Of a DNA stretch of 62,792 bases, positions 30,480 to 46,561 are shown one piece after another (position 1 is the first letter of the stretch; every line of letters begins with the position of its first letter). This stretch comes from Syntrophobacterales bacterium (lineage in GTDB: Bacteria; Desulfobacterota; Syntrophia; Syntrophales; UBA8958): contig JAGPFL010000002.1 of assembly GCA_018056545.1 (NCBI GenBank), positions 1 through 62,792 on the forward strand, in the 5' to 3' direction. The position numbers were made by a program, and so were the translations under genes. The notes beneath the pieces are model-generated. The model was given only the letters and a program-made list of their open reading frames with translations. It made no database searches and was not told the DNA's origin.

Positions 30480-31319
30480 TCAAAAATCCCTTGTCAATTT
30501 ATCAAGTTCCGCGAAAGTGAAGACGGGGCCGTCCTTGCAGACGTATTTGCTTCCCACGTTGCACCGCCCGCACTTGCCGATACCACACTTCATCCGCATC
30601 TCCAGGGAGGTGATGATGTTTTCCTTGGAGAAACCGAGTTCAAAGAACACCGGGAGGGTGAAGCGGATCATGATGGGCGGACCGCAGATGACCGTCACGG
30701 CGTTTTCCGGGCTGGGGCCGACCTCCTTGCAGACCGTGGGCACGAAACCCTCCCGGCCCTTCCAGTTGGCGTCACCCTTGTCCACCGTCACGTTCAGATC
30801 GATATCGTCCCGTTTACTCCAGGCCTCCAGCTCGTCCTTGTAGATGAGGAGCCCGGGGTTGCGGGCGCCGTAAACCACCGTAATCTTTCCGAAACGCTTT
30901 CGGTTGTCGCCGAAGGTCATGTAATTGATCAGGGAGCGCAGGGTCGTAAAGGCAAAACCGCCGCCGACGATGACGACATTCTTTCCCTCGAGATATTCTA
31001 TGGGCCAGGAATTTCCCAGGGGGCCCCGGAGACCCATCCGCGTCCCCACCTCCATCTCGTGTAGGGCCGAGGTGACGACGCCGGCCTTCTGGACCGTGAA
31101 TTCCACATAGCCCGGCTGGGTCGGCGAAGAAGCGATGCCGATGGGTGATTCTCCCTTGCCGAAAAGGGACAATTCGGCGAACTGGCCGGGGATGTACTTG
31201 AATTTCTCCTCGTCTTCCTTGTTCACGAAGGCCAGACGGAAGGTCTTGATATCCTTCGTATCCACCTCGGTGACGATCTTTATGACCTCGACAGGATAGG
31301 GTATGTAAGGGTTTTGCAT
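30480..31319 (-). CDS. FAD/NAD(P)-binding iron-sulfur oxidoreductase (FlxA / AsrB / HydG-like)
   Basis: 279 aa with a ferredoxin-reductase-type fold. The C-terminal cluster motif is CGIGKCGRCNVG...VCKDGPVF. Confidence 0.75.
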   Translation of the reverse strand: MQNPYIPYPVEVIKIVTEVDTKDIKTFRLAFVNKEDEEKFKYIPGQFAELSLFGKGESPIGIASSPTQPGYVEFTVQKAGVVTSALHEMEVGTRMGLRGPLGNSWPIEYLEGKNVVIVGGGFAFTTLRSLINYMTFGDNRKRFGKITVVYGARNPGLLIYKDELEAWSKRDDIDLNVTVDKGDANWKGREGFVPTVCKEVGPSPENAVTVICGPPIMIRFTLPVFFELGFSKENIITSLEMRMKCGIGKCGRCNVGSKYVCKDGPVFTFAELDKLTRDF

Positions 31320-31334
31320 GACTTTCTCCCAGCT

Positions 31335-32357
31335 CTATAGTTTCGATATATCGGTGACGATCTTCCGGATGTCGATATTTACGGGGCAGTACATGACACA
31401 GCGGCCGCAGCCCACGCAGGCAATGGCGTTGAAATTCTCCGGGTAGTAACTGAATTTGTGCATCGCCCGCTGGCGCCACCGCTCCTTCTGGGTGGGGCGG
31501 GGATTGTGACCCGACGTCTCCTTGGTGAACATGGGAAACATGCAGGAATCCCAGTTCCGCAGACGCCGGCCGTCGCTCCGCATCATCTCGTCGGAGATGT
31601 CGAAGCAATGACAGGTGGGACACAGGAAGGTGCAGGTCCCGCAGGCGAGACAGCGCTGATGGACGGTGTTCCAGAAGGGGCTGTTGAAGTTGGCGTCCAT
31701 GATCGGTTTGACTTCCCGGCCGGGGATGTGGGATTTGATCTCCGCCGCCGCCTGAGCGGCGATGGCTTCCTTCTTCGCCTCGGCGGCGGCATCGGCCTTG
31801 TCCCCGCCGAAATGACCCAGGAGTTTCTCCCCCTTGGGGGTGATGAATTCCGCCAGATAATGGTCGCCCAGATCGGTGAGCAGGACATCCGCCCCGTCGG
31901 CGGCCACGGGATGACCGTCCACGGAGGTGCAGAAGCACGTGGCGTAGGGGGGGTGAACGCAGGCCAGGGCGACGATCGTGGTCTTTTCCCGCTTGTCGAT
32001 GTAATAGGGATCCCGGTACTTCTCCTGATCGAAGAGCATATCCAGCAGGACATAGCTTCGGGCGTCACAGGGCCGCACCCCGAAAAGGACGGCTTTCTCC
32101 GCTTCTTTCTGGCCGGCGGTGAATTCCACACCTTTAGGCGTCCGGGTATAGCGCAGCATGACCTCGCTACGGGGGAAGAAGAAGTTCTTGGGGGCGTTTT
32201 TGCTGTTGGCATAATTCAGGAACGCCTCCTCTCCTTTCTCCAGCGCCTTGAAGAGGACATTGTCTTCCACCTTCACCGGGGCAAAAACTGTTGCCTCTTG
32301 AGCGATCTTCCCGATGATCCCTGTCAGAGCGTCTTTTTTGATCAACCGTTTTTCCAT
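31335..32357 (-). CDS. 4Fe-4S dicluster protein (FlxB / AsrA / HydB-like)
   Basis: Starts at MEKRLIKK (ATG 32357, AAGGA RBS). Cys motifs are CLACGTCTFLCPTCHC and CVGCGRCVMYCP. Confidence 0.75.
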   Translation of the reverse strand: MEKRLIKKDALTGIIGKIAQEATVFAPVKVEDNVLFKALEKGEEAFLNYANSKNAPKNFFFPRSEVMLRYTRTPKGVEFTAGQKEAEKAVLFGVRPCDARSYVLLDMLFDQEKYRDPYYIDKREKTTIVALACVHPPYATCFCTSVDGHPVAADGADVLLTDLGDHYLAEFITPKGEKLLGHFGGDKADAAAEAKKEAIAAQAAAEIKSHIPGREVKPIMDANFNSPFWNTVHQRCLACGTCTFLCPTCHCFDISDEMMRSDGRRLRNWDSCMFPMFTKETSGHNPRPTQKERWRQRAMHKFSYYPENFNAIACVGCGRCVMYCPVNIDIRKIVTDISKL

Positions 32358-32395
32358 ATCGTCCTTCAGTATGAGAAATTGTGGATATATTATTC

Positions 32396-33250
32396 TTAAA
32401 GGAGCCCGAGGCTGCTGACCAGCGGTACGGGGTCCACATTGTGCAGCTTGAACCACCCGGCGGTCCCCGGCAGACCCAGGGACAGCGAAACGAGTTCCGT
32501 GAAGTAGAAGACCGGCAACCGCAGATTCTCGCTGGCCCGGGCATCGAGATTCGCCATGCAGACCGGACAGGCAGTGACGACGCAGTTGGCCCCGGCCTCC
32601 CGGGCCATGGTCATGAGCTTGTCCACCAGTTTCCCGACGATATCCGTCCGGCTGATGGTGAGGCTGCCGCCGCAGCAGTCCGTTTTGTAAGACCAGTTCT
32701 TCACGTCCGCCCCCAGGGTGGCGAGGATCTCGTCCAACATGTAGGGATTTTCGTAATTCTCGAAGTTGCAGACCTCGGGGGGCCGGACCAGGAGGCAGCC
32801 GTAATAGGACACGGGACGTAACCCGGTGAGTTTCTTGATCACCTTGTCCTTCAGGGCGTCCAGACCGATGTCGTGGTAGAGGATATCGATGGGGTTCTTG
32901 ACGCTCAGTCCCGGGACGTACTTCTGTCCCACAATACCCTCCACCTCCGTCTTGAGGCCCTGATCATGATCGAGATGGTGCTGTGCCGACTTGAAACGGT
33001 TGAAGCAGGCGGCGCAGGGCACCATCATCTCCTTGAGGTCCCCCTTGCCGGCAATCATGAGATTCCGGGCGGGAAGGGCCACGGAGAGCTTGAAGTTCGT
33101 GGCATGTCCCGAGGTGGCGCCGCAGCAGGACCAATCGTCGATTTCTTTCAGCTCGATCCCCAGGGCGCGACTCATGGCCTTGACGGACTGATCGTATTCT
33201 TTCGCCGTCCCGTGTAGGGAACATCCCGGATAATATGAAACTTTCAACAC
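32396..33250 (-). CDS. hdrB: heterodisulfide reductase subunit B-like (two CCG domains)
   Basis: 284 aa with CCG motifs WSCCGA...PCAACF and TDCCGG...ACPVCM. Confidence 0.85.
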   Translation of the reverse strand: MLKVSYYPGCSLHGTAKEYDQSVKAMSRALGIELKEIDDWSCCGATSGHATNFKLSVALPARNLMIAGKGDLKEMMVPCAACFNRFKSAQHHLDHDQGLKTEVEGIVGQKYVPGLSVKNPIDILYHDIGLDALKDKVIKKLTGLRPVSYYGCLLVRPPEVCNFENYENPYMLDEILATLGADVKNWSYKTDCCGGSLTISRTDIVGKLVDKLMTMAREAGANCVVTACPVCMANLDARASENLRLPVFYFTELVSLSLGLPGTAGWFKLHNVDPVPLVSSLGLL

Positions 33251-33276
33251 TTGCCTCCTTGCTGTCGCTTACCGCG

Positions 33277-33885
33277 TCACGCGTTTTTCGTTTTGTCGAA
33301 TATCTTCCGGACCGCATCGAGATCCCGGGTCTTGGGGGAGACCAGAGACAATTTGCCCTTCATGAACATGGAAATGCCCAGGCCCATATCGGAGAAGAGG
33401 TCCCCGGATTTGAGCTTGTAGTCCACCATCATGAACGGCTCGTTGATCCGGCCCCGGGATTTGATGCTGGCCAGGAACGCCTCGTGGAAGGAGAGGACGT
33501 TCTTTTCCCTGGCCCCGATGCCGGCGGCGATGGCCATTTCCCTAAGGGCATCCATCATGCGGGCGATATCCACCTCGTTGGGGCAGCGGGTGATGCAGGT
33601 TTCACAGGATGCGCAGAGCCAGATGGTGGAACTTCCCAGGACCTCGTTTTTCATCCCCATCTGGATCATCCTGATGACCTTGTTGGGGTTGTGTTCCATG
33701 GCGAAGGCCAGGGGGCACCCGGCGGTGCACTTCCGGCAGTGATAGCAACGCTGCAGGGGCACGCCGTTGATCTTTTCGTTTACTTCTTCCAGAAAGGTCT
33801 TCATGTTGACTCCATTCGCCGTTCGGTCATCCTCGGTTAAGGGCAGACAGCCGTAGGATTTGACCAGGACCTTGTTGCCGGTCAT
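33277..33885 (-). CDS. hdrC: heterodisulfide reductase subunit C-like
   Basis: 202 aa with CYHCRKCTAGCP and CASCETCITRCP. The ATG is 3 nt after the upstream stop. Confidence 0.85.
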   Translation of the reverse strand: MTGNKVLVKSYGCLPLTEDDRTANGVNMKTFLEEVNEKINGVPLQRCYHCRKCTAGCPLAFAMEHNPNKVIRMIQMGMKNEVLGSSTIWLCASCETCITRCPNEVDIARMMDALREMAIAAGIGAREKNVLSFHEAFLASIKSRGRINEPFMMVDYKLKSGDLFSDMGLGISMFMKGKLSLVSPKTRDLDAVRKIFDKTKNA

Positions 33886-33888
33886 AAT

Positions 33889-34899
33889 TTAGGGGTTATA
33901 GATAAAATCTTCCTTGTCGTGCTCCTTGAAGGTGGAAAGGGGCGGCGGATCGTCGAGGGACGAGCCCGCCCGGTTGCCGAAGAAGTCGAAGGCGTCCTTG
34001 TCGAGCTTCTTGAGGAATTTCCTCAGATCCACCCCCATGGGACAGACGGACACACAGGAACCGCAGTCCACGCAACGCCCCACCATGTGGTACAGCCGCA
34101 TGAACTGGAACACCTGGGTATCCGTGGCATCCTCGCCGAGACCCACCCACTGGGGCTGGGTCTGCTCGACGAAACAGATCTTACAGTAACAGGAGGGACA
34201 GGCCTGGCGGCAGGCGTAACAGCGGATGCACTTGGACATCTCCTTGGTGAAATATGCCCAGCGCTCCTCCGGCGGCAGTTTCTCGAAGGCCTCCACCGCG
34301 GCGTATTCCTCCGCCGCCCCCGCCATGGCCGAGGCCGGCTCGCCGACCATGACATCGTTGAGGACGGGATTGTTGAACTTGCAGGTCCGGCAATTGTCCG
34401 CCAGGACGTCCGCCAGGAGGACTTCCTTCTTTCCCCCCGCCGTCTGGACGACCAGTTTGTCTCCCGTCAGGGATCCCTCCCGGATGTCCGCACCGTCCAG
34501 AACCGCCGCCAGGGCCTTGCGATCCACATAACCGGTGCAGGGCACGCCGATGATCACCACCTCTTCCCGCCCGTACTGCCGCTCCTGAAGATGGAGCACC
34601 AGGGAACGGGTGGTGCAGCCTCGGGCCACGACACCCACCACCTTTTTCTTCCGGTCCTCCGGTTTGACCCGTTTCTGGGCTTCCCGGTGCTGGGAGATCA
34701 GGTCATGGACGTACTTGGCCAGATTCTGGGTACAAAAGGCGTTCCAGACGAGCTTGTCCGCGTCCTCCGGATTCGTGATGAAACAGGGCGTCGCCGTCAG
34801 GGGCAGGGTGCCCGCCTCGTAACCCACCAAGGCATCCACCCTCTTTTCCTCCAGGAGCCGTTTTGCCTCTTCCCTTAGCTTTTTCTCGATGTTTTCCAC
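33889..34899 (-). CDS. iron-sulfur protein (FlxC / FrhB-like N-domain plus 2x[4Fe-4S])
   Basis: CIRCYACRQACPSCYC and CVDCGSCVSVCPMG. The GTG at 34899 has a GAGGA RBS. The ORF-track GTG at 34962 is the alternative start. Confidence 0.7.
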   Translation of the reverse strand: MENIEKKLREEAKRLLEEKRVDALVGYEAGTLPLTATPCFITNPEDADKLVWNAFCTQNLAKYVHDLISQHREAQKRVKPEDRKKKVVGVVARGCTTRSLVLHLQERQYGREEVVIIGVPCTGYVDRKALAAVLDGADIREGSLTGDKLVVQTAGGKKEVLLADVLADNCRTCKFNNPVLNDVMVGEPASAMAGAAEEYAAVEAFEKLPPEERWAYFTKEMSKCIRCYACRQACPSCYCKICFVEQTQPQWVGLGEDATDTQVFQFMRLYHMVGRCVDCGSCVSVCPMGVDLRKFLKKLDKDAFDFFGNRAGSSLDDPPPLSTFKEHDKEDFIYNP

Positions 34900-34983
34900 T
34901 TTATCTGAATCCTCGAATTTGTATTTTCTATGGCATGGCCGACGCCGGGCCGGCCGCCGCACCCGGCATCCCCAAAACGGTCT

Positions 34984-35421
34984 TTACAGGGTCTTCACCA
35001 GCTTCGTCGCCGGACCGAGGGCCTGGACCTTGGCGGTCACGCCCTTGATGACATTGGCGAAACGTTCTCCCTCCGAGGCGGAAATCCAGGTAAAGATCGC
35101 CCGGTCACCTTCCACTCCGATGTAGTCCAGGAAACTTTTCAACGTCGCAAACTTGCGGCGCGCCACCATATTTCCTGAAATGTAGTGGCATTCACCGGGG
35201 TGTCAACCGGAAACCAGCACGCCGTCGGCTCCCGTCTGCAGCGCCTTCACGACGTAAAAGGGGTTGATCCTTCCCGTGCAGGGAACGCGCACGATGCGCA
35301 CGTTCGGCGGATACTGAATCCTGCTGATGCCGGCCAGATCGGCGCCGGCGTAAGTACACCAGTTGCAGACGATGGCGACGATCTTGGGCACCCATTCCTT
35401 GTTTGCTACACTTTCACCCAT
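34984..35421 (-). CDS. mvhD: MvhD/FlxD-type methyl-viologen-reducing hydrogenase delta subunit, selenocysteine-containing (TGA at 35203-35205 read as Sec)
   Basis: Two track ORFs (35203..35421 and 34984..35169) share one frame. Read-through gives [19 protein letters not shown]...[28 protein letters not shown]..., a full-length MvhD. A SECIS-like hairpin lies 13 nt after the TGA. Confidence 0.75.
35162..35189 (-). other. SECIS-like stem-loop
   Basis: The minus strand reads GCCACUACAUUU-CAGG-AAAUAUGGUGGC. That is 12 stacked positions with one C.A mismatch and one G.U. It starts 13 nt downstream of the UGA. Confidence 0.55.
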
Positions 35422-35527
35422 ATATTCTCCTTCCCGTGGCTATGCGGCTTTATCGGCCGTTGACCTTAGTTAGCAACCCACGCCACCGCGGCGGCACTTT
35501 ATCAAAGAGTAAATTCGGAAAATTTAC

Positions 35528-38500
35528 TCAGAAGATATTGTATATCTGCTCCAGCTCTTCTTCGTTGGTGAAACCGTTGAGATCCACGGCGTTCATCCGG
35601 CACGAGGCCGTGCACACCCCGCAGCCCTTGCACAGGACGGTGTTCACCTCCGCACAGGCCTCCACGACGTTCACCGAAATGGCGCCGAAGGGACAGTTCT
35701 GTTCACAGAGGCCGCAGGCGGCGCAACGCTCCTTGTTCACATAGGCCGTCTTCCCCTCCGCCTCGATGAAATCTTTGGTAAGGATGGTGCAGGCCCGGGA
35801 TACCGCGGCGTTGGCCTGGACAATGGCGTCCTCGCTGAGCTTCGGGGCATGGGCCATGCCGCACATGAAGACGCCGTCGGTGGCGAAATCCACAGGACGG
35901 AGCTTCACATGGGCCTCCAGGAAGAAGCCGTCCTGGTTCGTGGGCACCTTGAGCATCTTGCCGATTTCCTCGTTTTCCGGATTGGGCACGGTGCCTACGC
36001 TCAAGGCGAGCAACTCCGTCTTGAACTCCACCGGGGCGTTCATGATGGGATCGAAGACCCGGAGGGAAAGTTGGTCGCCCTGCTGGATCACCTCCGGTTT
36101 CCGGTCTTCGTCATAGCGGATGAACCGGACGTTCAGCTCCCGGGCCTTTTTGTAGTAGTCCTCCTTCAGGCCGAAGGTGCGGATGTCGCGGTAGAGGATG
36201 GTGACCTCCCGGGTCGGATCCAGCTCCTTGAGCTTCAGGGCGTTCTTCATGGCCTCGGAACAGCAGTAACGGCTGCAGTAAGGCCGCTCCGGAATCCGGG
36301 AACCCACACACTGGATCATGGTCACGCTGCGGGCCTTGAGGGCCTTGTCTTCCTTCTCGGCGATGAGCTTTTCCAGCTCCCGCTGGGTGACGACCTGGGG
36401 GGACTGACCGTAGAGATACTCCTTGGTTTCCAGCTCATAACCCCCGGTGGCCACGATGACCACCCCGTGCTCGAACTGTTCTTCCCCGTCCCTCGTCGTG
36501 ATGGTGGTCTTGTAGTTGCCGATGAAACCTTCGATCTTCTTGATGATCGCCCCGGTGTAGGCATGGATGAGCTTGCTGGCCTGAACCCTGTCCAGGAGGG
36601 ACTTCAGGTGCCGGCGGGTGTCCAGCCCCTCCAGGGTGTAGTAGAGCTTCCGGTAATTGCCGCCCAGGACCGGTTCCTTCTCTACGATATAGGACTCGTA
36701 GCCCTGATCGGCCAGGGAGAGGGCCGCGGTGATGCCGGCGAGACCGCCGCCGATGATGAGAGTGGCGTGATTAACCGTCAACTGCCCCGGTTTCAGGGGC
36801 TTGAGGAACTGTGCCTTGGCGACGGCCATCCGCACCAGATCCTTGGCCTTTTCCGTGGCCTCCTGGGGCTCGTGCATGTGCACCCAGGAGTTCTGATCGC
36901 GGATGTTGGCCATCTCGAAGAGATAGCGGTTGAGCCCCGCCTTCTCACAGTTCTCCTGGAAGAGCCCTTCGTGGGTCCGGGGGGAACAGGAGGCCACGAC
37001 CACCCGGGTCAGGTTCTGTTCCTTGATCACCTCGCCCATCTTCACCGCCGTATCCTGGGAGCAGGTAAAGAGATTGTCCGTGGCGAAGACGACGTTGGGC
37101 AGGGTCTTGCAGTATTCCACCACCTCGGGGACATTGACGACGCCGCCGATGTTGATGCCGCAATGGCATACGAAGACGCCCGTCCGGGGACCGAGGCCCC
37201 GGAGATCGGATTCCAGAGGCAGTTCTTCCTCCGTGATCATCGTCCCCCGCCGGGATGCCAGGATCCCCGCCGCGCAGGCCGCGGCGCCGCTGGCTTCCAT
37301 GACCGTCTCGGGGATGTCCTTGGGACCGCCGAAGGCGCCGCAGACGAAGACGCCGCTCCGGGACGTCTCCACGGGATTCTCCAAGGCGGTCTTGCAGAAG
37401 CCGTGCTCCTCGAGCTCGATCCCCAGGGCCTTCGCCAGCGCCGCCGCCTCCGGGGGCGGGCAGAGACCCACGGAGAGGACCACCATGTCGAATTCCTCCT
37501 CGATGAGGCTGCCGTCCTCCTGGACGTATTTCAGCAGCAGGTTCTTGGACTGCTGAAGTTCCTTGATCGTCGAGGGCATGGAGCGGATATAGCGGATCCC
37601 GTATTCGTCCTTCGCCCGGTTGACGAAGCGGTCGAAATCCTTGCCGTGGGCCCGGATATCCATGAAGAAGATCGTGGGTTCGAGCTCCTTGGCGTGTTCC
37701 TTGCCGATGATGGCCTCCTTGGTGGCATACATGCAGCAGACGGAGGAGCACCAACTGTTGCCGCAGGAGGTGTCGCGGGAACCGACACACTGGATGAAGG
37801 CGATTTTCTTCGGCTCCCGGCCGTCGGAGATGCGCTGGACATGGCCGAAATAGGGCCCCGAGGCGGAAAGGATCCGCTCGAACTGGATGCTGGTGACCAC
37901 GTTCTGGTAAATCCCGAAGCCGTATTCGCCCCGGAGCCGGGCGTCGAAAACCTCGAAACCCGGTGCGGCGATGACGGCGCCGACTTCGATGGTCTCCTCT
38001 TCGAAGGTGTCGTCATGGTTGATCGCCCCGGCGATACAGGCCTCGACGCACTGATAACATTCCGAACAGATCCCGCAGGCAAGACAGCGCTTGGCCTCCG
38101 CCACGGCCTCTTCCTCGGTGAAGCCGATGCCCACCTCCCGGAAGTTCGTTCTCCGGTCTTCCGGTTTCATGTGGGGGTATTTCCTTCGCGGGACCTTCGC
38201 GACCTTGGAGACGTCGGCCTTGTCGGCCAAATTCTTGGTCCAGTCCTTCGCCCGGCCCGCCGCCACGTCCTCGCCCCGGAGATACCGGTCGATGGAGACC
38301 GCCGCCTCCTTACCGGCATAGACGGCCTTCACCACCGTCGCGGGACCGGTGACCACGTCGCCGCCGGCAAAGACACCCGGGGTGGTCGTGGCGAAGGTCA
38401 CCGGATCGACGTCGAAATTCTTCCACTTGTTGATGGCGATGCCGCTCTCTTTGGGGACGAAATCGAGATCCGCCTCTTGGCCGATGGCGGGGATCAGGGC

Positions 38501-39964
38501 GTCACAGGGGACGATGAACTCCGAACCCTTGATCTCCACGGGACGGCGTCGGCCGCTGGCATCGGGCTCTCCCAGTTCCATACGGGTACATTCCACCCCC
38601 GTGACCTTACCGTTTTCCCCGACCACCCGTTTGGGGGCCACAAGGAATTCCATCTTGATACCCTCTTCCAGGGCCTCTTCGATCTCTTCGGGGGAGGCGG
38701 GCATCTCCGCCCGGGACCGGCGGTAGAGGATGAAGACGTCCTTGGAGCCGGTGCGGATGGCCGTCCGGACGGCGTCCATGGCGACGTTCCCGCCGCCGAC
38801 CACGGCGACCTTGTCTCCCAGGAAGACCTTTTCGCCCAGGTTGACCCGCTTCAAATAATCCACGCCGTGGATGACCCCCTGCATATCCTCGCCGGGGATG
38901 TTGAGTTTGCTGCTATTGACGGTACCGCAGCCGATGAACACCGCGTCGAAGTCGCTCTGGAGCTTCGCGAAGGGGATGTCCTTGCCCACGGCGGTGTTGA
39001 GATGGATCTTTACCCCCAGATCCTCGATGACCTTGATCTCCGCCTTCAGGACATCTTTGGGAAGGCGGTATTCGGGGATGCCCACGGCGAGCCAGCCGCC
39101 CGCCACGGGGAGGGATTCGAAGACCTCTACGTCGTAGCCCTCGGCGGCCAGATAATAGGCGCAGGTGAGGCCCGCGGGACCGGCGCCCACCACGGCCACC
39201 TTCTTGCCCTTGCTCTCCTTCTTCTCGGGAAGGTAGCGGGTTTCGTCTTTCAGATCCAGATCGGCGACGAAACGCTTCAAGTGCATGATGTCGATGGGCT
39301 CTTCCACCTTGCCCCGCATACACGCCGTCTCGCAGGGGTGGTTGCACACCCGGCCGCAGACGATGGGGAAGGGATTGTCCTTTTTGATGAGCTTCAAGGC
39401 CTCTTTGTATTTCCCGGCGGCGATCAGGGCCACGTAGCCCTGGACGCTGATGTGGGTGGGACAGGCCGCCTTGCAGGGGGAGGTGCCGACCTTGTCGATG
39501 GCATAACCGCTGGGAATCGCCTGGGGAAACTTGCGATAAGTCGCCTGGCGCTCGGAAAGATTCTCGTTGAAATCGGAAGGGACGTTGATGGGGCAGACCT
39601 TGGCGCAGTCGCCGCAGCCCGTGCACTTGTTCAGGTCGATGAACCGGGGGGCCCTGGTCATCTTTACCTTGAATTTTCCCGCCTCCCCTTCCACGGCGTT
39701 GACCGTGCGCCGGGTGAGGATCTCCACATTGGGATGCCGGCCTACCTCCACCAGTTTCGGGGAAAGGATGCAGGCGGAACAATCGTTGGTGGGAAAGGTC
39801 TTGTCGAGCTGGGCCATGACGCCGCCGATACTGATGTCCTTTTCCACCAGATAGACCTTCAGGCCGGAGTTGGCCAGATCCAGGGAAGCCTGAATTCCGG
39901 CGATGCCGGAACCGACCACCATAACTGCACCGATTTTTTCATTGTCATTGATCACGTGAGACAC
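35528..39964 (-). CDS. HdrL-type giant HdrA-like flavoprotein (HdrA module split by a GltD/NfnB-like NAD(P)H module, then a second HdrA module and C-terminal ferredoxin domain)
   Basis: 1478 aa. Three dinucleotide-binding starts are present (VVGSGIAGIQ, VVGAGPAGLT, IIGGGLAGIT). Two HdrA signature regions are present (IQCVGSRDTSCGNSWCSSVCC and IQCVGSRIPERPYCSRYCC). There are multiple 4Fe-4S motifs. Confidence 0.85.
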   Translation of the reverse strand: MSHVINDNEKIGAVMVVGSGIAGIQASLDLANSGLKVYLVEKDISIGGVMAQLDKTFPTNDCSACILSPKLVEVGRHPNVEILTRRTVNAVEGEAGKFKVKMTRAPRFIDLNKCTGCGDCAKVCPINVPSDFNENLSERQATYRKFPQAIPSGYAIDKVGTSPCKAACPTHISVQGYVALIAAGKYKEALKLIKKDNPFPIVCGRVCNHPCETACMRGKVEEPIDIMHLKRFVADLDLKDETRYLPEKKESKGKKVAVVGAGPAGLTCAYYLAAEGYDVEVFESLPVAGGWLAVGIPEYRLPKDVLKAEIKVIEDLGVKIHLNTAVGKDIPFAKLQSDFDAVFIGCGTVNSSKLNIPGEDMQGVIHGVDYLKRVNLGEKVFLGDKVAVVGGGNVAMDAVRTAIRTGSKDVFILYRRSRAEMPASPEEIEEALEEGIKMEFLVAPKRVVGENGKVTGVECTRMELGEPDASGRRRPVEIKGSEFIVPCDALIPAIGQEADLDFVPKESGIAINKWKNFDVDPVTFATTTPGVFAGGDVVTGPATVVKAVYAGKEAAVSIDRYLRGEDVAAGRAKDWTKNLADKADVSKVAKVPRRKYPHMKPEDRRTNFREVGIGFTEEEAVAEAKRCLACGICSECYQCVEACIAGAINHDDTFEEETIEVGAVIAAPGFEVFDARLRGEYGFGIYQNVVTSIQFERILSASGPYFGHVQRISDGREPKKIAFIQCVGSRDTSCGNSWCSSVCCMYATKEAIIGKEHAKELEPTIFFMDIRAHGKDFDRFVNRAKDEYGIRYIRSMPSTIKELQQSKNLLLKYVQEDGSLIEEEFDMVVLSVGLCPPPEAAALAKALGIELEEHGFCKTALENPVETSRSGVFVCGAFGGPKDIPETVMEASGAAACAAGILASRRGTMITEEELPLESDLRGLGPRTGVFVCHCGINIGGVVNVPEVVEYCKTLPNVVFATDNLFTCSQDTAVKMGEVIKEQNLTRVVVASCSPRTHEGLFQENCEKAGLNRYLFEMANIRDQNSWVHMHEPQEATEKAKDLVRMAVAKAQFLKPLKPGQLTVNHATLIIGGGLAGITAALSLADQGYESYIVEKEPVLGGNYRKLYYTLEGLDTRRHLKSLLDRVQASKLIHAYTGAIIKKIEGFIGNYKTTITTRDGEEQFEHGVVIVATGGYELETKEYLYGQSPQVVTQRELEKLIAEKEDKALKARSVTMIQCVGSRIPERPYCSRYCCSEAMKNALKLKELDPTREVTILYRDIRTFGLKEDYYKKARELNVRFIRYDEDRKPEVIQQGDQLSLRVFDPIMNAPVEFKTELLALSVGTVPNPENEEIGKMLKVPTNQDGFFLEAHVKLRPVDFATDGVFMCGMAHAPKLSEDAIVQANAAVSRACTILTKDFIEAEGKTAYVNKERCAACGLCEQNCPFGAISVNVVEACAEVNTVLCKGCGVCTASCRMNAVDLNGFTNEEELEQIYNIF

Positions 39965-40147: not shown

Positions 40148-40762
40148 TCAGTTCCCCGACCGCTCCTCCTGCTCGCGGCCGCCGGCCAGCCCGGCAATAA
40201 TCTCCCAGAGCGGCTCCCGCCCCTGTCGGGTACGGGCGGAAAACAGCAGAGGCAGTTGCCGGCCCGCCAGGCCGGCCTGCATACCCACCAGGCGGCGGCG
40301 CTCCGCCGCCTGGTGCTTAGAAAGTTTGTCCGCCTTCGTCAGGACAAGCTGCCACGTGATACCCCTCTCCGTAAGCCACTGAAGAAAATCCAGGTCTTCA
40401 TCCCGGAGATCCCGACGGATGTCCGCAATCAGCAGTACGAGGACCAGATTCTTTCTCCCCGCCAGGTAGGATTCCACCATGGGACCCCAACTTTGTCTCA
40501 TCCGCTCCGGGACCCGGGCGAAACCGTATCCCGGCAGATCGACGAAGCAGAACTGCTCGTTGACGACAAAGAAATTCATCGCCTGGGTCCTCCCCGGGGT
40601 ACGGCTGGTCTTGGCCAGATTACCGCGGTTGACCAAGGTGTTGATCAGGCTCGATTTCCCCACATTGGAACGGCCGGCAAAGGCGATTTCCGGCCATTGC
40701 GGCGGCGGATAATGAGTGGCGAGGAGGGCGGTTTTCAGATACCGCGCGGAATTGATCTTCAT
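40148..40762 (-). CDS. engB: ribosome biogenesis GTP-binding protein YsxC/EngB
   Basis: 204 aa with G1 GRSNVGKSS, G3 DLPGYG and G4 TKADK. Confidence 0.9.
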   Translation of the reverse strand: MKINSARYLKTALLATHYPPPQWPEIAFAGRSNVGKSSLINTLVNRGNLAKTSRTPGRTQAMNFFVVNEQFCFVDLPGYGFARVPERMRQSWGPMVESYLAGRKNLVLVLLIADIRRDLRDEDLDFLQWLTERGITWQLVLTKADKLSKHQAAERRRLVGMQAGLAGRQLPLLFSARTRQGREPLWEIIAGLAGGREQEERSGN

Positions 40763-40772
40763 GAAGAAAAAT

Positions 40773-42146
40773 TCAATCCCGCTCGATGGTAATGCCGTAC
40801 TTCTCCAACTTCCGCTCGAAGGTGGGACGGGAAATGCCGAGGATGTCGCATATCTCCCCTTTGGTCTTATGGCTGTTTTCCTTGATGATCCTGCGGATAT
40901 ACTGTTCCTCCACCGCCTCCAGAGTCAGGGGACGGCCGGCATCCGCCGTTTCTTCCTGGCCCTTGTTCACCGCCGTCAAGGCCTCTTCGGAAAGATCGGG
41001 GAAATCGCTCCGGGTGAGCACCTGGCTTTTGGCGACCACCACCGCCCGGGTAAGGAGGTTTTCCAACTCCCGCACATTGCCGGGCCAGCGGTAGTTCATG
41101 AAGACCTCCATCATTTCATCGGATACCCCGATGACCTTTTTATGTAGCTCCCGGTTGATCTTGGTCAACAGATAGTCCACCAGCACCGGCAGATCTTCCC
41201 GCCGCTCCCGGAGAGGGGGGATGCGGATGGAAACGATGTTCAGGCGATAATACAGATCATCCCGGAATTTACCCTCCTTGACCATGCCTTTGAGGTCCTT
41301 GTTGGTGGCGGCGATGATCCGGGCGTTGACCTTGATGGAATCCTTGCCGCCCACCCGTTCGAAGTCCATCTCCTGGAGGACCCGGAGCAATTTCGCCTGG
41401 AGATTCAAAGACATTTCACTGATCTCGTCCAGGAACACCGTGCCGTAGCGGGCCAGCTCGAACTTTCCCAGTTTGCGGGTGATGGCGCCGGTGAAGGATC
41501 CCTTTTCATGACCGAAGAGCTCCGATTCCAGGAGGGTTTCCACAATCGCCGAACAGTTGACGGCGATATAGGGTTCCTCGGGCGAGGTATTGTTGTGGAT
41601 GACCTTGGCGATGAGTTCCTTCCCCGTACCGCTCTCCCCCTGGATGAGAACGGTGGTCCGGCTTTGGGAGACGACGCCGATGGTCTTGAAGATCTCCTTC
41701 ATTTCCTTGGTGTTGCCGATGATATCGCCGACCTTGAAACTCCGGGAAGGCTCGTTGAGGAGACCGCTGATCTTTTTCTCCATCTCTAGGGTTTTCAAGG
41801 CTTTCCGGATGGCCATGTCCAGCTCTTCCACATTGATCGGCTTGTGGATGTAATCGAAGGCGCCCCCCTTCATGGCCTTGATGGTGGAATCCATGTCATG
41901 ATAAGCGGTGATCATGATCACCTTCACGTTTTCGTCCTCGTCCCGGAGATCCTCCAGGACGGTGAAGCCGTCGATGTCGGGAAGGCGGATATCGAGGATG
42001 ACCACATCCGGGGCATGCTTCACAAAGGCATTGAGACCATCCGTTCCCGTAGCGGCGGTATACACCGTATATCCTTCCTCGGTCAGATAGAGATCGAGGC
42101 TCTCCGCAATGGAACTGTCGTCGTCAATCACCAGAATTTTTGCCAT
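40773..42146 (-). CDS. sigma-54-dependent response regulator (NtrC/Fis family)
   Basis: Starts at MAKILVIDDD (ATG 42146). It has a receiver domain and an AAA+ domain with GESGTGKE and GAFTGA. The C-terminal HTH is EICDILGISRPTFERKL. The ORF-track start is too far upstream. Confidence 0.9.
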   Translation of the reverse strand: MAKILVIDDDSSIAESLDLYLTEEGYTVYTAATGTDGLNAFVKHAPDVVILDIRLPDIDGFTVLEDLRDEDENVKVIMITAYHDMDSTIKAMKGGAFDYIHKPINVEELDMAIRKALKTLEMEKKISGLLNEPSRSFKVGDIIGNTKEMKEIFKTIGVVSQSRTTVLIQGESGTGKELIAKVIHNNTSPEEPYIAVNCSAIVETLLESELFGHEKGSFTGAITRKLGKFELARYGTVFLDEISEMSLNLQAKLLRVLQEMDFERVGGKDSIKVNARIIAATNKDLKGMVKEGKFRDDLYYRLNIVSIRIPPLRERREDLPVLVDYLLTKINRELHKKVIGVSDEMMEVFMNYRWPGNVRELENLLTRAVVVAKSQVLTRSDFPDLSEEALTAVNKGQEETADAGRPLTLEAVEEQYIRRIIKENSHKTKGEICDILGISRPTFERKLEKYGITIERD

Positions 42147-42169
42147 GGAGCGCTCCTGATCGTTTCGTC

Positions 42170-44203
42170 CTATTCCTGGAGGGGGAGGGTGATGAGTATT
42201 TTCGTTCCCTCTCCCTTTTTGCTTTCGATCTCGATGTTGCCCCGGTGCAGGTCGATGATCTTCTTGACCTGGGTCATACCCAATCCCGTTCCGTAGCGCT
42301 TTTGCGTAAAAAAGGGATTGAACATGTGGGATATGGTTTCCGCGTCCATCCCGCACCCGTTGTCGACGATCTCCACGACCACGGCATGAGGATCGGCGCC
42401 CAGATCCCGGGCCGAGACATGCAGCCGGCCTCCTTCGCCCATGGCATCGATGGCGTTCCGGAAGATGTTCTGAAAGGCCTGCTCCAGCATAACGCCGTCA
42501 ATAACCGGATGGGGCAGTTCCTCTTCCACCTCGACGACGACGGCGATTTTCTTGTCGGTCACCGCCTTTTCCATCATTTCCAGGGCGTTTTCTATGGTGC
42601 GGCGAAGATCTGTTGGAACCCGTTTCGGTTCTCCCGGCTTGGCATAGATCAGCACGTCGTTCACCAGTTCTTCCAGATGTTCCACCTCCCGCTGGGCGAT
42701 CTTGAAACGTTTCAGATCGTTGCCCGTGGGTTGCAGCCGTTTTTCCAGGATCTGCAGGCTCATTTTGATGGAGGAAAGGGGATTGCGCACCTCATGGGCG
42801 ATACCGGCGGACAGTTGTCCGATGGCCGCCAGCTTCTGGCTTTCATAGTACTTCTTCTCCAGTTCCTTGAACTCGGTGATCTCCCGACGGACCATGACAT
42901 AGCGGTCCTTCTCTCCCTTGAGGGGACAGGGGGTGATGAGATTGAACTGGCGGCTGCCGTCGGCGGCAATCACCTCCATCTCGAAGGGCTTGAAATTCCC
43001 CTTCTTTATCTCTTCCCATTTTTCCAGCAGGAATTCTTTACGGTCGGGCACGTACTCGGTAAAATGCTTGCCCTTGATCTGCGAGGGTTTCATCCCGTCA
43101 CTGCTTCGGTCCCGACTGACGTAGGTGATGATCCCGTCGCTGTTGAGCTCGAAGAGGGTGTCCGGAGAACTTTCCAGGATCGTCTGAATGTAATTGTAGA
43201 GCCCTTCCAATTCCTGGCGGAGCCGGATGTTTTCCTTCAGCTCGTTCTCCAGATTCTCGGCGTATTCCTTCAGATGGTGGGACATTTCCTGTTCCCGGGT
43301 GATGTCCTGCAGGGTCTCCACGGCGGCGATAACCTCTCCCTGGTCGTCGTGGATGGGGGCCGCCAGAAAATACAGATAACGCCCCTTCCCGCCGATATTG
43401 GGATAGAAATCCCAGGCCTCATAGGCGCCCTCGATGATCGGCGATTTCTGCACGTTCTTCTTTCCGTAATACTTCTCCAGACTCTCTATGTCTTTATCGA
43501 CGATGAGATCGGCGATTACCGGACGTTTTTCCGCATAAAAGGGGACGTACTGACGGTCCGTGCCGATGAAATACTTGCCTTCGTAACCGCTCAACTCGGT
43601 GAAGGCCCGGTTCCAGAACATGATCTTGTGATCCCGACCGATGACGAACATGGGAATGGGAGATCCCTCGATGATACCTTCGATGGTTTTCCGCAGCTTG
43701 ATGTTCTTCTCGAGCTCATCACGCATGTTGGCGGCGTATTCCTTCAGACTGAGCTCCATCTCCCTTTCCCGGGTGATGTCCTGAAGGGTTTCGATGGCGG
43801 CGATAATCTCGCCGTTCTCGTCGTAGATGGGTGCCGCCAGAAAATAGAGGTGCCGGTTCTGTCCACCCAGGTCGATGTAAAAATCCCGGGCCTCATAAGC
43901 GCCTGCCACCTTTCTGGATTTTCTGATACGCTTGGTGCCGTAGAACTTTTCCAGACCGCCGATGTCCTGGTCGATGATCAGATCGGCAATCAACGGCCTT
44001 CTCGTGCCATAGAAGGGCATGTAGTGCTTGTCCGTACCGATCATTTCGCCGGCGGCGAAACCGGTGAGTTCCTCGCAGGCCCGGTTCCAGAAGATAACTT
44101 TGTGCTCCTTGTCGATGACAAAGGTGGGGATGGGGGATCCTTCTATGATGCCGACGATGACCTTCCGCTCGCGCAGGAGTTGCTCCTCGGCGGCTTTATT
44201 CAT
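42170..44203 (-). CDS. cytoplasmic multi-PAS sensor histidine kinase
   Basis: Starts at MNKAAEEQ (ATG 44203). No TM segment. Two tandem 158-aa PAS-containing repeats plus a third PAS. H-box is LSAGIAHEVRNPLSSI. HATPase motifs are DNGCGM and GTGLGM. Confidence 0.88.
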   Translation of the reverse strand: MNKAAEEQLLRERKVIVGIIEGSPIPTFVIDKEHKVIFWNRACEELTGFAAGEMIGTDKHYMPFYGTRRPLIADLIIDQDIGGLEKFYGTKRIRKSRKVAGAYEARDFYIDLGGQNRHLYFLAAPIYDENGEIIAAIETLQDITREREMELSLKEYAANMRDELEKNIKLRKTIEGIIEGSPIPMFVIGRDHKIMFWNRAFTELSGYEGKYFIGTDRQYVPFYAEKRPVIADLIVDKDIESLEKYYGKKNVQKSPIIEGAYEAWDFYPNIGGKGRYLYFLAAPIHDDQGEVIAAVETLQDITREQEMSHHLKEYAENLENELKENIRLRQELEGLYNYIQTILESSPDTLFELNSDGIITYVSRDRSSDGMKPSQIKGKHFTEYVPDRKEFLLEKWEEIKKGNFKPFEMEVIAADGSRQFNLITPCPLKGEKDRYVMVRREITEFKELEKKYYESQKLAAIGQLSAGIAHEVRNPLSSIKMSLQILEKRLQPTGNDLKRFKIAQREVEHLEELVNDVLIYAKPGEPKRVPTDLRRTIENALEMMEKAVTDKKIAVVVEVEEELPHPVIDGVMLEQAFQNIFRNAIDAMGEGGRLHVSARDLGADPHAVVVEIVDNGCGMDAETISHMFNPFFTQKRYGTGLGMTQVKKIIDLHRGNIEIESKKGEGTKILITLPLQE

Positions 44204-44378
44204 GTTCCGCTTCCTTCTTTTTCTTGTCCTTGTGCTCCTTGACCGCCATGAGGACATAAACCCCCACCGCGGCGCTGAGGGAGATGATAAGATTGACCAG
44301 ACCGCTTTCGATGCCGATGACCCGCTGACATATCAGCCAGACCACCAAATATGTCACGGCCGTTAAGATTTCTTGCAT
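44196..44378 (-). CDS. small two-TM membrane protein, translationally coupled to the PAS kinase
   Basis: 60 aa reading MQEILTAVTYLVVWLICQRVIG...LIISLSAAVGVYVLMAV plus a Lys-rich tail. AGAGG RBS. Its stop overlaps the kinase ATG (ATGAATAA). Confidence 0.5.
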   Translation of the reverse strand: MQEILTAVTYLVVWLICQRVIGIESGLVNLIISLSAAVGVYVLMAVKEHKDKKKKEAEHE

Positions 44379-44519
44379 TATTAAACCTCTTGACGATATT
44401 ATGCTATAGATGGATCAGGCGATGTTTTGTTGATACTACTTGCCTCCGTCCAAAATTTCAATGAAAAATTATGACGGGATGGTCAATCTCCGGAGGCATG
44501 GGCTATCCCGGATTAGACG

Positions 44520-44552
44520 TTTCATTCAATTTCCGGGACCGATTGAATGAAA
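44520..44552. promoter_or_regulatory. perfect 11-bp inverted repeat, candidate enhancer (UAS) for the sigma-54 activator
   Basis: TTTCATTCAAT-N11-ATTGAATGAAA. It is centred ~125 bp upstream of the -24 element at 44660. A related half-site GTTCAAT follows at 44554-44560. Confidence 0.5.
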
Positions 44553-44607
44553 TGTTCAATGCCCCGGGGCGGAAAAATCGGTTGCCCTTGACGGCGCACA
44601 AAAAATT

Positions 44608-44620
44608 TGTCAAATATTTG
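44608..44620 (+). promoter_or_regulatory. IHF-like site
   Basis: TGTCAAATATTTG has one mismatch to WATCAANNNNTTR. It lies between the palindrome and the -24/-12 element. Confidence 0.3.
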
Positions 44621-44659
44621 TAACTCATTAAGCGGCATGGCGACGGGACTTGACGTCAA

Positions 44660-44675
44660 TGGCATATCTGTTGCA
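44660..44675 (+). promoter_or_regulatory. sigma-54 (-24/-12) promoter
   Basis: TGGCATATCTGTTGCA is a near-perfect match to TGGCAC-N5-TTGCA. It lies ~100 nt upstream of the ATG at 44774. Confidence 0.65.
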
Positions 44676-44773
44676 GTTCCCGGCGCAGTTCAAAACATTT
44701 TTACTTCCCGTGATACATATTCTGTGTTATGGGAGGAAAAATTATAAGCCAAGATACGAAAGGAGAAGAAAAG

Positions 44774-45151
44774 ATGTTAGGGAAATTTGGAAAGAAGTTG
44801 TTAACTCTCATGACGGCAACAGCGGCGGTACTTATGTCCTCCCCGGTCGTTTTTGCTGCGGAAGCTCTCCCCGCTGCCGGCGATTCGTACGTTAAGGTGA
44901 TTTATGCGGTAGGCGCCATGGTCGCCGCCGGATTCGCCATCGGCCTTGGCGCCATCGGCGCCGGCGCCGGTATCGGCAATGCCGCCAATGGGGCCTGTCA
45001 GGCCGTCGGAAGAAACCCCGGGGTTCAGGGTAAGATCATGACCGTGATGCTGGTCGGTATGGCCATGGCGGAATCCGTTTGTATTTATGCCCTGGTTGTG
45101 GCGCTCGTTCTTCTCTATGCCAACCCCTACGTAAAGTACTTTTTGGGTTAA
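44774..45151 (+). CDS. ATP synthase subunit c paralog (copy 2) with N-terminal signal-like extension
   Basis: 125 aa from the ATG at 44774 (AAAGGAGAAG RBS). It reads MLGKFGKKLLTLMTATAAVLMSSPVVFA-AEA, then the c-subunit hairpin GAIGAGAGIGN...GRNPGVQG...MAMAESVCIYALVVALVLLYANP. Confidence 0.8.
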   Translation: MLGKFGKKLLTLMTATAAVLMSSPVVFAAEALPAAGDSYVKVIYAVGAMVAAGFAIGLGAIGAGAGIGNAANGACQAVGRNPGVQGKIMTVMLVGMAMAESVCIYALVVALVLLYANPYVKYFLG

Positions 45152-45202
45152 TCCGACCGATGATATTAACTTCAAAATGAACTACAGTTAGGGGGAAAAA
45201 GA

Positions 45203-46516
45203 ATGTCAGAGAAGAAACAAGATAAGCAGTTTTTCACTGTCGCAAGGGTATTCTTCCTGCTTATCGTAATCCCCTTATCACTGATGGCGATCCTTATCGC
45301 CAATGGGATTTTCAAATTAGGGGTTACAGTTAAAGAACGGGCTGTGACCGTTCTAGACCAGAAATCTCAGGAAGAAATCAAGATTCGTGCCATGAACATT
45401 GCGGATGAAGTGACAAACTTCCTTACGGAACGTAAGAAGGATGTCCTCATCGCCACGATCATCCCGGCCACGGAATCTGCATACAAACAGTTCGTCAACG
45501 ACAATCGCCGCAACATCTGGGTCAAGGATGGCGACAAGCTGAAACAGGTTTCCGTCCCCATTTATACCGAGATGACGCTCATCGACAAAAACGGCCAGGA
45601 GGTCATCAAGATCACCAACGGAGAAATAGCCGCCAAATCGAGGCTCATCAACGTAAGCGTGCCGGCGAACACCATGTACAAGTCGGAAACCTATTTCGCC
45701 TCGGCAAAGGCCTTGAACAAGGGCGATGTCCATGTTTCCCATGTTACGGGCTGGTATGTGAACCGGTCCGAATTTGAAAAGGGAAAGCGTTTCAACGGCG
45801 TTATCCGCTTTGCCACCCCGTTGTACGGTCGGGAAGGCCTGCAAGGTGTCGTGCAGCTGGCGCTTGACTACCGTCATCTCGCCGCCTACACGGACCATGT
45901 GATTCCCACCCAGTCCAACCCGGTGTTCGAAGCGGACGCCTCTACGGGGAATTACGCCTATATGGTGGATAATCGGGGGATTATGATTTCCCATCCCAAC
46001 GATTATCATATCGGCGGGCTTTATCCCGACGGCAATCCGGTGCCGCCCCTTACCGAGCAGACCTCGGCGGCGCTTACGAAAAAGGGGGAAGAGGTACTGA
46101 ACCTGAACCTCATGGGCTTCATCGATCCCAACCTGCCCCTCATTGCCAAGGACGCGGCTACCGGAAAATCGGGCATCAAGACGTATAAGTTCGGGGGCCA
46201 CACGAAATTCGTGGCTTACGCCCCCATCAAGTTCTTCTCCCATGACTATCCGTCGCCGGCTGGGTTCGGTTGGATCGGCATGGGTGTGGATGTGGAAAAA
46301 TTCAATGAAATAGCCACCAAGGCAACCCAGAACATTCAGAAGGAAGCGAAAGCCTGGTCCACCACCATCATCCTGATCCTGGTGATCTCCATCGTGCTGC
46401 TCTTTGCGATCGCCGGGCTGCTGTCCCGAGGCATCACAAGGTCCATCGAGGCCGAGGTGCCGCCCGATGCCCAGGGTGAGGGTCCTTTCTACGATGACGA
46501 AGAAGAGGACAAATAA
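45203..46516 (+). CDS. double-Cache-like periplasmic sensor domain membrane protein without output domain
   Basis: 437 aa. It has an N-terminal TM, a ~340-aa extracytoplasmic region resembling dCache sensor domains, and a second TM. Only ~35 cytoplasmic residues follow, ending in an acidic tail DDEEEDK. Confidence 0.65.
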   Translation: MSEKKQDKQFFTVARVFFLLIVIPLSLMAILIANGIFKLGVTVKERAVTVLDQKSQEEIKIRAMNIADEVTNFLTERKKDVLIATIIPATESAYKQFVNDNRRNIWVKDGDKLKQVSVPIYTEMTLIDKNGQEVIKITNGEIAAKSRLINVSVPANTMYKSETYFASAKALNKGDVHVSHVTGWYVNRSEFEKGKRFNGVIRFATPLYGREGLQGVVQLALDYRHLAAYTDHVIPTQSNPVFEADASTGNYAYMVDNRGIMISHPNDYHIGGLYPDGNPVPPLTEQTSAALTKKGEEVLNLNLMGFIDPNLPLIAKDAATGKSGIKTYKFGGHTKFVAYAPIKFFSHDYPSPAGFGWIGMGVDVEKFNEIATKATQNIQKEAKAWSTTIILILVISIVLLFAIAGLLSRGITRSIEAEVPPDAQGEGPFYDDEEEDK

Positions 46517-46530
46517 TCAACACTGACCGA

Positions 46531-46561
46531 AAAAGGCCGGATTTGATCCGGCCTTTTTTTT
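46531..46561 (+). terminator. rho-independent terminator
   Basis: AAAAGGCCGGA-TTTGA-TCCGGCC followed by TTTTTTTT. Confidence 0.8.

Follow-up and report, generated by a model that had tools for sequence, protein, structure and literature searches.

A second ATP synthase subunit c isoform paired with a stand-alone double-Cache protein in a conserved Syntrophales module with a predicted sigma-54 promoter

A Syntrophobacterales bacterium (GCA_018056545.1) carries on contig JAGPFL010000002.1 a module of five genes, in which a gene for an ATP synthase subunit c isoform, designated c2, is followed by a gene for a stand-alone double-Cache (dCache) membrane protein, referred to below as Cache. Genes for a 60-aa membrane protein, a histidine kinase and a sigma-54 enhancer-binding response regulator are oriented divergently from this pair. 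The stretch of DNA analyzed, here called the window, is 62,792 nt long, with the module at 40773-46561. Domains were assigned with Pfam and NCBIfam profiles, and chance levels for motifs of the window were taken from shuffled sequence. Conservation was assessed in 80 loci, which were collected by scanning a genome collection with the Cache protein and keeping one genome per species. These loci are assigned to Syntrophus, Smithella, Syntrophales and unclassified deltaproteobacterial metagenome-assembled genomes, the exception being one short contig binned as Draconibacterium. Pairing of c2 with Cache was counted over the 72 loci with sufficient upstream sequence, and the divergent operon over 54 loci. 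The features of the window are collected in Table 1, and every gene of the module lies where a preliminary description of this DNA had placed it.

Table 1. Genes and sequence elements of the module, and the ATP synthase genes found in the same window
Feature	Position	Strand	Evidence or remarks
c1, other subunit c isoform, 124 aa, signal peptide	12712-13086	-	PF00137, 61.9 bits
atpZ (19534-19839), atpI (19799-20194), atpB (20198-20857)	19534-20857	+	Pfam ATPase_gene1, ATP-synt_I, ATP-synt_A; TIGR01131 passed
NtrC-type sigma-54 enhancer-binding response regulator, 457 aa	40773-42146	-	REC, AAA+ with GSFTGA, HTH_8
Soluble histidine kinase, 677 aa	42170-44203	-	Three PAS stretches, HisKA, HATPase_c; no transmembrane helix
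60-aa protein with two transmembrane helices	44196-44378	-	Overlaps kinase start by 8 nt
Sigma-70-like promoter of the small-protein/kinase/regulator operon, TTGAAA-17-TAGTAT	44433-44461	-	Consensus scan, 9/12 positions; pattern match only
Putative activator site: inverted repeat TTTCATTCAAT-N11-ATTGAATGAAA (44520-44552) and third half-site GTTCAAT (44554-44560)	44520-44560		Unique in window, conserved
IHF-like site GTCAA-N4-TTG	44608-44620	+	One mismatch; surrounding region AT-rich (62%)
Predicted sigma-54 promoter TGGCAT-N5-TTGCA (TGGCATATCTGTTGCA)	44660-44675	+	GG 44661-62, GC 44673-74
Conserved 5′ untranslated block, TTTCCyCTTT ... TTTrTGyTAT GG	44698-44736	+	Alignment of 72 loci
c2, subunit c isoform, 125 aa	44774-45151	+	PF00137, TIGR01260
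Cache, stand-alone double-Cache protein with two transmembrane helices, 437 aa	45203-46516	+	dCache fold, weak dCache_1 match
Intrinsic terminator, 14-bp stem and U8 tail	46529-46561	+	RNA fold -25 kcal/mol

The product of c2 passes both profiles listed for it, with 62.6 bits against PF00137 (cut-off 24) and 46.5 bits against TIGR01260 (cut-off 43.95). Its N-terminus is a Sec-type signal peptide with a predicted cleavage between ...VVFA and AE, in agreement with the signal-peptide-like start that had been noticed in the preliminary description. The hallmarks of subunit c are the GxGxGxG motif in helix 1 (GLGAIGAGAGIG), the GRNP loop and the sequence MAESVCIY with the ion-binding Glu, and all of these are kept in all orthologs. 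The loop reads RNPGVQ, a conserved Cys occurs in the sequence GAC, the ion-binding Glu lies within AESVCIY and the protein has a YANP end. The Cache gene begins after a gap of 51 nt and encodes a protein with a transmembrane (TM) helix at each end and a conserved, aromatic-acidic cytoplasmic tail of 30 residues at the C-terminus, ending FYDDEEEDK. No output domain is present. This layout had been described from the translation, and a structure model now assigns the periplasmic part, about residues 40-385, to the dCache fold. The unit is closed by the intrinsic terminator (z = -3.7; 0/200 shuffles were equally stable), which had earlier been described as strong.

The divergent operon has the proposed order of a small two-TM protein, a TM-less kinase with three PAS stretches and a sigma-54 activator, and both the domains and the gene overlap were borne out by our analysis. 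The stop codon of the small-protein gene falls within the kinase start (ATGAATAA). The small protein matches no Pfam or NCBIfam family and is strongly conserved in 53/54 loci, with the pattern MQEILTAVTYLVVWLIC..IESGL..LISL and a charged C-terminal tail. In the kinase, no hydrophobic segment was found anywhere, including the residues before the first PAS. The regulator scores 226 bits for Sigma54_activat, 106 bits for Response_reg and 20.8 bits for HTH_8, the last just under the 22-bit gathering cut-off, and has the NtrC-type layout of a receiver domain, an AAA+ domain with a GAFTGA-type loop (here GSFTGA) and a C-terminal Fis-type helix-turn-helix. Its longest open reading frame starts at GTG 42356, which we rejected in favor of the true start, MAKILVIDD, at 42146. 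Across relatives the regulator is 74-92% identical and occurs in 53/54 loci. An identity of the pair as AtoS/AtoC was rejected, as the scores of 261.5 bits for AtoS and 479.4 bits for AtoC fall short of the NCBIfam cut-offs of 646 and 714. The best NCBIfam match of the regulator is this AtoC-like one, and kinase and regulator both stay below every NCBIfam equivalog cut-off, therefore we treat them as a distinct system. An EngB/YsxC-type GTPase gene (40148-40762, minus strand) follows the regulator gene after 10 nt; its position is kept in most relatives, and given this it may be co-transcribed with the two-component genes.

Upstream of c2 lies the near-consensus -24/-12 element that had been claimed for this region, with its GG and GC doublets exactly 10 bp apart. 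It is the sole match to TGGCAY-N5-TTGCW in the window, where shuffled sequence gives 0.08 expected matches, and it would place the start of transcription near 44685. The element is kept in every locus at a conserved position, typically 107-134 nt and in a few loci up to 159 nt from the c2 start. It takes the form TGGCAY-N5-TTGCA in Syntrophus-like genomes and TGGCAY-N5-(A/G)TGCA in Smithella-like genomes, while the spacer bases vary freely. When 1.47 Mb of related loci were used as background, 73/76 matches to the -24/-12 pattern fell at the c2 upstream site. A consensus scan of the intergenic region found no sigma-70-like promoter upstream of c2 on the plus strand. Elsewhere in the window, a second, weaker sigma-54-like motif (TGGCATAGGATATGCT) occurs at 2642-2657 (plus strand), about 320 nt upstream of a 171-aa open reading frame (2977-3492) without a Pfam family.

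Further upstream, the perfect inverted repeat reported in the preliminary description matches at 11/11 positions, has no second copy in the window and no match in 100 shuffles, and proved to be phylogenetically conserved. Its consensus is TTTCrTTCAAT-N11-ATTGAAyGAAA. In the Syntrophus clade, where its 11-nt spacer is not conserved, it lies some 140 nt upstream of -24, and variants are found elsewhere. Half-site 7-mers occur in 32-40 of the 73 upstream regions used for these counts, against 2-3 expected, a 10- to 17-fold enrichment; GTTCAAT alone is present in 40/73 against 3.2 expected. The half-sites peak at 110 and 130 nt upstream of -24, about 20 bp apart. The site resembling a binding site for integration host factor (IHF) fared differently: its consensus occurs in 1-2/73 loci, which is the chance level, and a conserved IHF site between activator site and promoter was rejected. 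Downstream of the promoter, the 5′ untranslated region (UTR) contains a conserved block whose pyrimidine tract, TTTCCyCTTT, is roughly complementary to the strong, conserved ribosome-binding site of c2 (GAAAGGAGA). The block has no Rfam match, and RNAalifold supported no consensus structure for it. A 13-bp hairpin drawn by hand in the 5′ UTR was no better than slid controls and was rejected.

The module of five genes is conserved across the order Syntrophales. A gene-neighborhood comparison found c2 directly before Cache in 72/72 testable Syntrophales loci, with a gap of 38-79 nt, and orthologs of c2 (54-98% identity) in every locus. The small protein, kinase and regulator are divergent upstream in 53/54 loci, and the downstream phosphoenolpyruvate synthase gene is kept in just 20/60. 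The pair also occurs in a distant metagenomic lineage (locus L089), where P0243, a stand-alone protein 40% identical to Cache with the same acidic tail, follows a c gene. That c gene is c1-like (c1 is described below) and has a sigma-70-like promoter, and the gap between c and Cache is 220 nt. A complete Rnf operon and NfnAB-like genes come immediately after the c1-like gene and the stand-alone Cache in this locus (L089, 1235-8253). A metagenome scan for more loci of the 40%-identity lineage found just 2. In L026, c2-Cache is preceded at a distance of 4 kb by a V/A-type ATPase operon (54-3977), which encodes B, D, a 588-aa protein without a family and a c/K subunit of 151 aa.

Assignment of Cache to the dCache family draws on several searches. 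The window protein scores 27 bits against dCache_1 (PF02743; cut-off 45), and its ortholog P0241, 64% identical, passes with 55 bits. In an AlphaFold2 (AF2) model of moderate quality, with a mean predicted local distance difference test score (pLDDT) of 65 (core 70-89), two PAS-like folds sit on a long N-terminal helix between the two TM helices. In a Foldseek search of the PDB with this model, the top 50 matches were all dCache sensor domains, belonging to kinases and chemoreceptors, at probability 1.0 and a target TM-score mostly of 0.45-0.69; a search by sequence found no relative with a solved structure. We found 774 homologs of Cache, among which the Syntrophales orthologs are 68-99% identical among the matches listed. 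The close homologs are all from Syntrophales and are annotated just as hypothetical or "cache domain-containing". An exhaustive profile-free search yielded 445 cluster representatives of Cache relatives, and those inspected, short fragments aside, are nearly all N-terminal sensors of HAMP, GAF, kinase or hybrid-kinase proteins. In one relative, P0242, the whole Cache module with its two TM helices is conserved at 54% identity, and PAS, GAF and kinase domains follow directly. This PAS shares 41-47% identity with the two PAS domains nearest the N-terminus of the window kinase. The gene for P0242 lies within an Mrp/Mnh-type cation/proton antiporter cluster (L092, 8424-21531), which also encodes two universal stress proteins and additional response regulators. 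From the contexts of P0242, P0243 and c2 it follows that Cache relatives adjoin ion-motive machines in all three contexts examined, namely Mrp, Rnf and subunit c.

It had been suggested that Cache, the small TM protein or both supply a membrane input that the soluble kinase is missing. The lack of such an input is true of the window lineage but is specific to it. Orthologous kinases in most Syntrophales have their own TM-dCache-TM sensor with about 290 periplasmic residues (dCache_1, 28 bits), some lineages have two TM helices only, and the window clade and one other have none. When the three N-terminal forms were compared (L002, 5774-8878; L007, 6605-8875; window, 42170-44203), the 60-aa TM protein was constant upstream. 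The stand-alone Cache is not a split-off copy of the sensor in the orthologous kinases, a candidate rejected because no similarity was detectable (E = 0.23). The suggestion that Cache feeds the kinase thus has a point in its favor, the fusion of the same module to the same PAS type and a kinase in P0242, and two against it, as most kinases are self-equipped and the c-Cache pair is kept in places without an adjacent kinase operon.

The paralogy claimed for c2 is true, as the window contains a second subunit c gene, c1, the product of which is 58% identical to c2. The c1 protein has the motifs GLGQ...MTESVAIY and the loop RNPEAQ. The gene, which is monocistronic, is preceded near 13262 by a TTGACA-type promoter-like sequence and followed just downstream by a hairpin and T-run. 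An ortholog of c1 is found at the same relative position in L097, and in one lineage a c1-like gene is convergent to the Cache gene. In the window, the gene after atpB is not a c gene; it encodes a secreted protein without a known family. The same c-less atpZIB cluster occurs in L096 and L097, and the Fo genes of this bacterium are spread across more than 30 kb. In the published annotation of Ca. Smithella cisternae (PMC5606693 Table S9), the F1 genes and two b genes share an operon, atpB is present once, and "subunit C" is encoded by exactly two dispersed genes, of which one shares a contig with atpB. Two genes directly follow atpB in the window (21038-23538, plus strand); their products of 362 and 463 aa have signal-peptide-like starts, are rich in Ala, Lys, Glu and Arg, and belong to no Pfam family.

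The two isoforms differ consistently in the F1-facing loop (RNPEAQ in c1, RNPGVQ in c2), in a Cys before the loop that is present in c2 only, and at the ion site (TES in c1, AES in c2). A difference in the ring-size motif was considered and rejected, given an identical Gly pattern. Na+-binding c subunits are recognized by Gln or Glu in helix 1 together with ESTxxY in helix 2 (PMC2881411). By this measure we rejected c2 as a Na+-type subunit, since it has Asn in helix 1 (Thr, Ser or Gln in orthologs) and ESVCIY without the Thr of the motif. c1 has Gln in helix 1 and ESVAIY, which likewise lacks this Thr. The absence of the ESTxxY Thr from both isoforms fits the H+ specificity stated for the F-ATPase of Syntrophus (PMC2881411). 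Nor is c2 the subunit c of an N-ATPase, as it scores 61.4 bits against TIGR03322 (cut-off 130.85) and has Cache and a two-component system as its neighbors.

We lean toward an explanation in which an alternative c isoform of H+ type, serving a single F1Fo, is induced by the two-component system together with a co-sensor. In this model, which we build from the sequence, a sigma-70-type promoter would drive expression of the 60-aa protein, the PAS histidine kinase and the NtrC-type regulator from the minus strand. The phosphorylated regulator would bind the inverted repeat and activate the predicted sigma-54 promoter, yielding a transcript of c2 and Cache that would end at the terminator. The c2 protein would be exported through its signal peptide and join the c-ring, alone or mixed with c1, and its presence there would change the rotor, most visibly in the F1-facing loop, where RNPGVQ would stand for RNPEAQ. 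Cache would be a periplasmic ligand sensor co-induced with c2, and most likely would report to the kinase via membrane contacts with the small TM protein or with the kinase itself. We do not hold these parts with equal confidence. That the adjacent two-component system drives c2-Cache from the sigma-54 promoter is highly probable, and this regulatory reading is strong because a sigma-54 promoter at fixed distance, a dyad at enhancer distance and an adjacent NtrC-type activator and kinase come together with no alternative promoter detected. Entry of c2 into the F1Fo ring is probable, because all hallmarks of a working c are kept and only c1 and c2 are available for the single a/b/F1 set. The role of Cache is the least certain part. 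Its fusion homolog and sensor fold speak for an input or feedback sensor of the kinase, and the c-Cache pairing, invariant even without the kinase, speaks for a direct partner of the c2 ring; we rank the former slightly above the latter.

Several observations weigh against the induced-isoform explanation. The presence of c1 has been checked in few genomes only. The ring-size Gly motif is identical in c1 and c2, so that no difference in stoichiometry or ion specificity is readable from it, and the c2 loop has no acidic residue following RNP, where one is usual, a change that might point to altered F1 binding or to none at all. Most orthologous kinases have a dCache sensor of their own, and a second sensor is not obviously needed. 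The c-Cache pair also stands without an adjacent kinase operon in L001, L026 and the distant L089. Since the pair is kept where the kinase operon is absent, the tightest link is between c and Cache, not between Cache and kinase, and therefore Cache may serve c2 rather than the kinase. Cache would then be no kinase input but a dedicated partner of the c2 ring, either an assembly factor or a ligand-controlled accessory subunit with TM helices contacting the ring or lying within it, and the two-component system would set just the amount of c2 and Cache. A link without exception in 72/72 loci favors this, as do the pairs that persist in L001 and L026 with no kinase operon and, in the 40%-identical relative, beside Rnf genes with no sigma-54 promoter. 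It would also suit a protein that has only a conserved aromatic-acidic tail where an output domain might be, and kinases that mostly come self-equipped with a sensor. The fold of Cache, however, is that of an ordinary dCache sensor. Its closest non-orthologous relatives are all sensor modules of signaling proteins, one of them fused to the same PAS type as the window kinase, and in L089 c and Cache are 220 nt apart. We know of no bacterial sensor-domain subunit of Fo, which also counts against a ring partner, and we consider this alternative rather unlikely, though it is the one we take most seriously.

Two further alternatives concern c2 itself. It might be the main, housekeeping c subunit, with a sigma-54 promoter for high expression and c1 as an accessory. 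This would agree with c2 orthologs in every Syntrophales locus examined when c1 is confirmed in few, with the lack of a c gene beside atpB and with the strong, conserved ribosome-binding site. A sigma-54 promoter stays silent, however, unless an enhancer-binding protein has been activated, and a dedicated kinase and regulator next door argue for conditional expression. It is c1, moreover, that has the canonical RNPEAQ loop, the TTGACA-type promoter-like sequence and the chromosomal location on the atpB side, and a housekeeping role for c2 seems to us improbable. In the other alternative, c2 works outside the ATP synthase, a reading that had also been raised in the preliminary description; it would then be a proteolipid ring or channel acting with Cache in sensing or transport. 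The loop region of subunit c contacts F1 in known enzymes, and it is in this region that c2 has lost the acidic residue (RNPGVQ vs RNPEAQ). The conserved Cys of c2, absent from c1, and its constant pairing with a non-ATPase protein point the same way. On the other side, c2 retains the Gly motif, R-N-P, Glu and YANP end of a working F-type c, scores above the NCBIfam equivalog cut-off and is 58% identical to c1. To our knowledge there is no precedent in bacteria for a c-type protein with a role outside the ATP synthase, and we regard such a role for c2 as very improbable.

Other genes of the window were also recorded. Three tandem Hsp20/alpha-crystallin genes (25270-26699, plus strand) encode proteins of 153, 135 and 168 aa. 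A large flavin/iron-sulfur oxidoreductase cluster (27946-39964, minus strand) includes a 1478-aa HdrA-like fusion, split FlpD/MvhD-like pieces, and HdrC- and HdrB-like (CCG) proteins, as well as two DHODB-type FAD/NAD subunits and an NfnB/GltD-like subunit. This cluster adjoins the module in many relatives and adjoins atpZIB in L096 and L097.

Comparison with known systems places the module among familiar parts. The Na+ F1Fo of Acetobacterium woodii has atpE1, atpE2 and atpE3 inside its atp operon, one of them encoding a duplicated V-type-like c, and forms a hybrid rotor of fixed ring composition. The likeness is that of a strict anaerobe near the thermodynamic limit with two or more c isoforms serving a single F-type enzyme. 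Here, in contrast, two ordinary two-TM hairpin c genes lie away from atpB, and c2 has its own predicted sigma-54 promoter, a two-component system and a Cache partner. Mammals likewise have several differently regulated subunit c genes, ATP5G1-3 (P1-P3), in which the targeting peptides differ, the mature c is identical and c supply controls the amount of ATP synthase, whereas in the window the mature proteins differ (58% identity), in particular in the F1-facing loop. A Sec-type signal peptide with an AxA-like site stands at the start of c1 as well as c2, and the c subunit of Aquifex aeolicus reportedly also carries an N-terminal signal peptide; the feature is common to both isoforms and so is not distinctive of c2. 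The N-ATPase (atpDCQRBEFAG) is a second, laterally transferred F-type ATPase found in S. aciditrophicus (Dibrova et al. 2010, PMC2881411). It gives this group of organisms another source of F-type c subunits, but c2 lies outside such an operon, falls below the TIGR03322 cut-off and is without the Glu that N-ATPase c subunits typically have in helix 1.

On the regulatory side, the module resembles NtrBC, AtoSC and ZraSR in its HisKA/HATPase_c kinase, its REC/AAA+/HTH_8 regulator, an inverted repeat about 110-140 bp upstream of -24/-12 and a divergent layout; unlike in those systems, the target here would be a bioenergetic rotor subunit and an orphan sensor. Membrane proteins encoded near or regulated by two-component systems can modulate the kinase through membrane contacts, as YycH/YycI do for WalK, MgrB or SafA for PhoQ, and MzrA for EnvZ. 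This is the role we propose for the 60-aa protein and for Cache, which have no sequence relationship to these proteins. The difference from the WalK, PhoQ and EnvZ systems is that the kinase of the window lineage has no TM segment and would need recruitment to the membrane. Each component is thus of a known kind, and the combination of a second c isoform, enhancer-dependent control and an output-less dCache partner, order-wide, was not found in the literature searched or in public annotation. The multi-c rotor of A. woodii, ATP5G1-3 and the N-ATPase all differ from it in gene organization, regulation and the absence of a sensor partner. Our literature searches found neither such a module nor sigma-54 control of subunit c, and public annotation does not describe the module, in line with the claim of the preliminary description that it is not a described one. 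We know of no other structural gene of an ATP synthase that is controlled in an enhancer-dependent (sigma-54) manner, and if the proposed control is real, c2 would be the first such case.

Syntrophic bacteria live on the smallest known energy quanta, and it is an old question by what means the ion/ATP ratio and the direction of their ATP synthase are adjusted to changing conditions. We speculate that the module could serve as a rotor isoform switch, in which an extracellular cue read by the dCache domain would cause c2 to replace or dilute c1 and thereby change stoichiometry or F1 coupling. Such a switch would act as a "gear shift" under regulatory control, with ATP synthesis on one side and, on the other, ion pumping driven by ATP for reverse electron transport; in the boldest form, Cache would be a ligand-controlled accessory subunit on the c2 ring. 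We think this reading unlikely. What the module suggests in general is that energy-starved Syntrophus-type bacteria adjust their ATP synthase rotor on demand. It provides a concrete handle on this idea, with two gene products to be counted in purified c-rings, a promoter and a site open to testing, and a sensor domain open to ligand screening, and with it rotor adaptation in the bioenergetics of syntrophy becomes experimentally testable.

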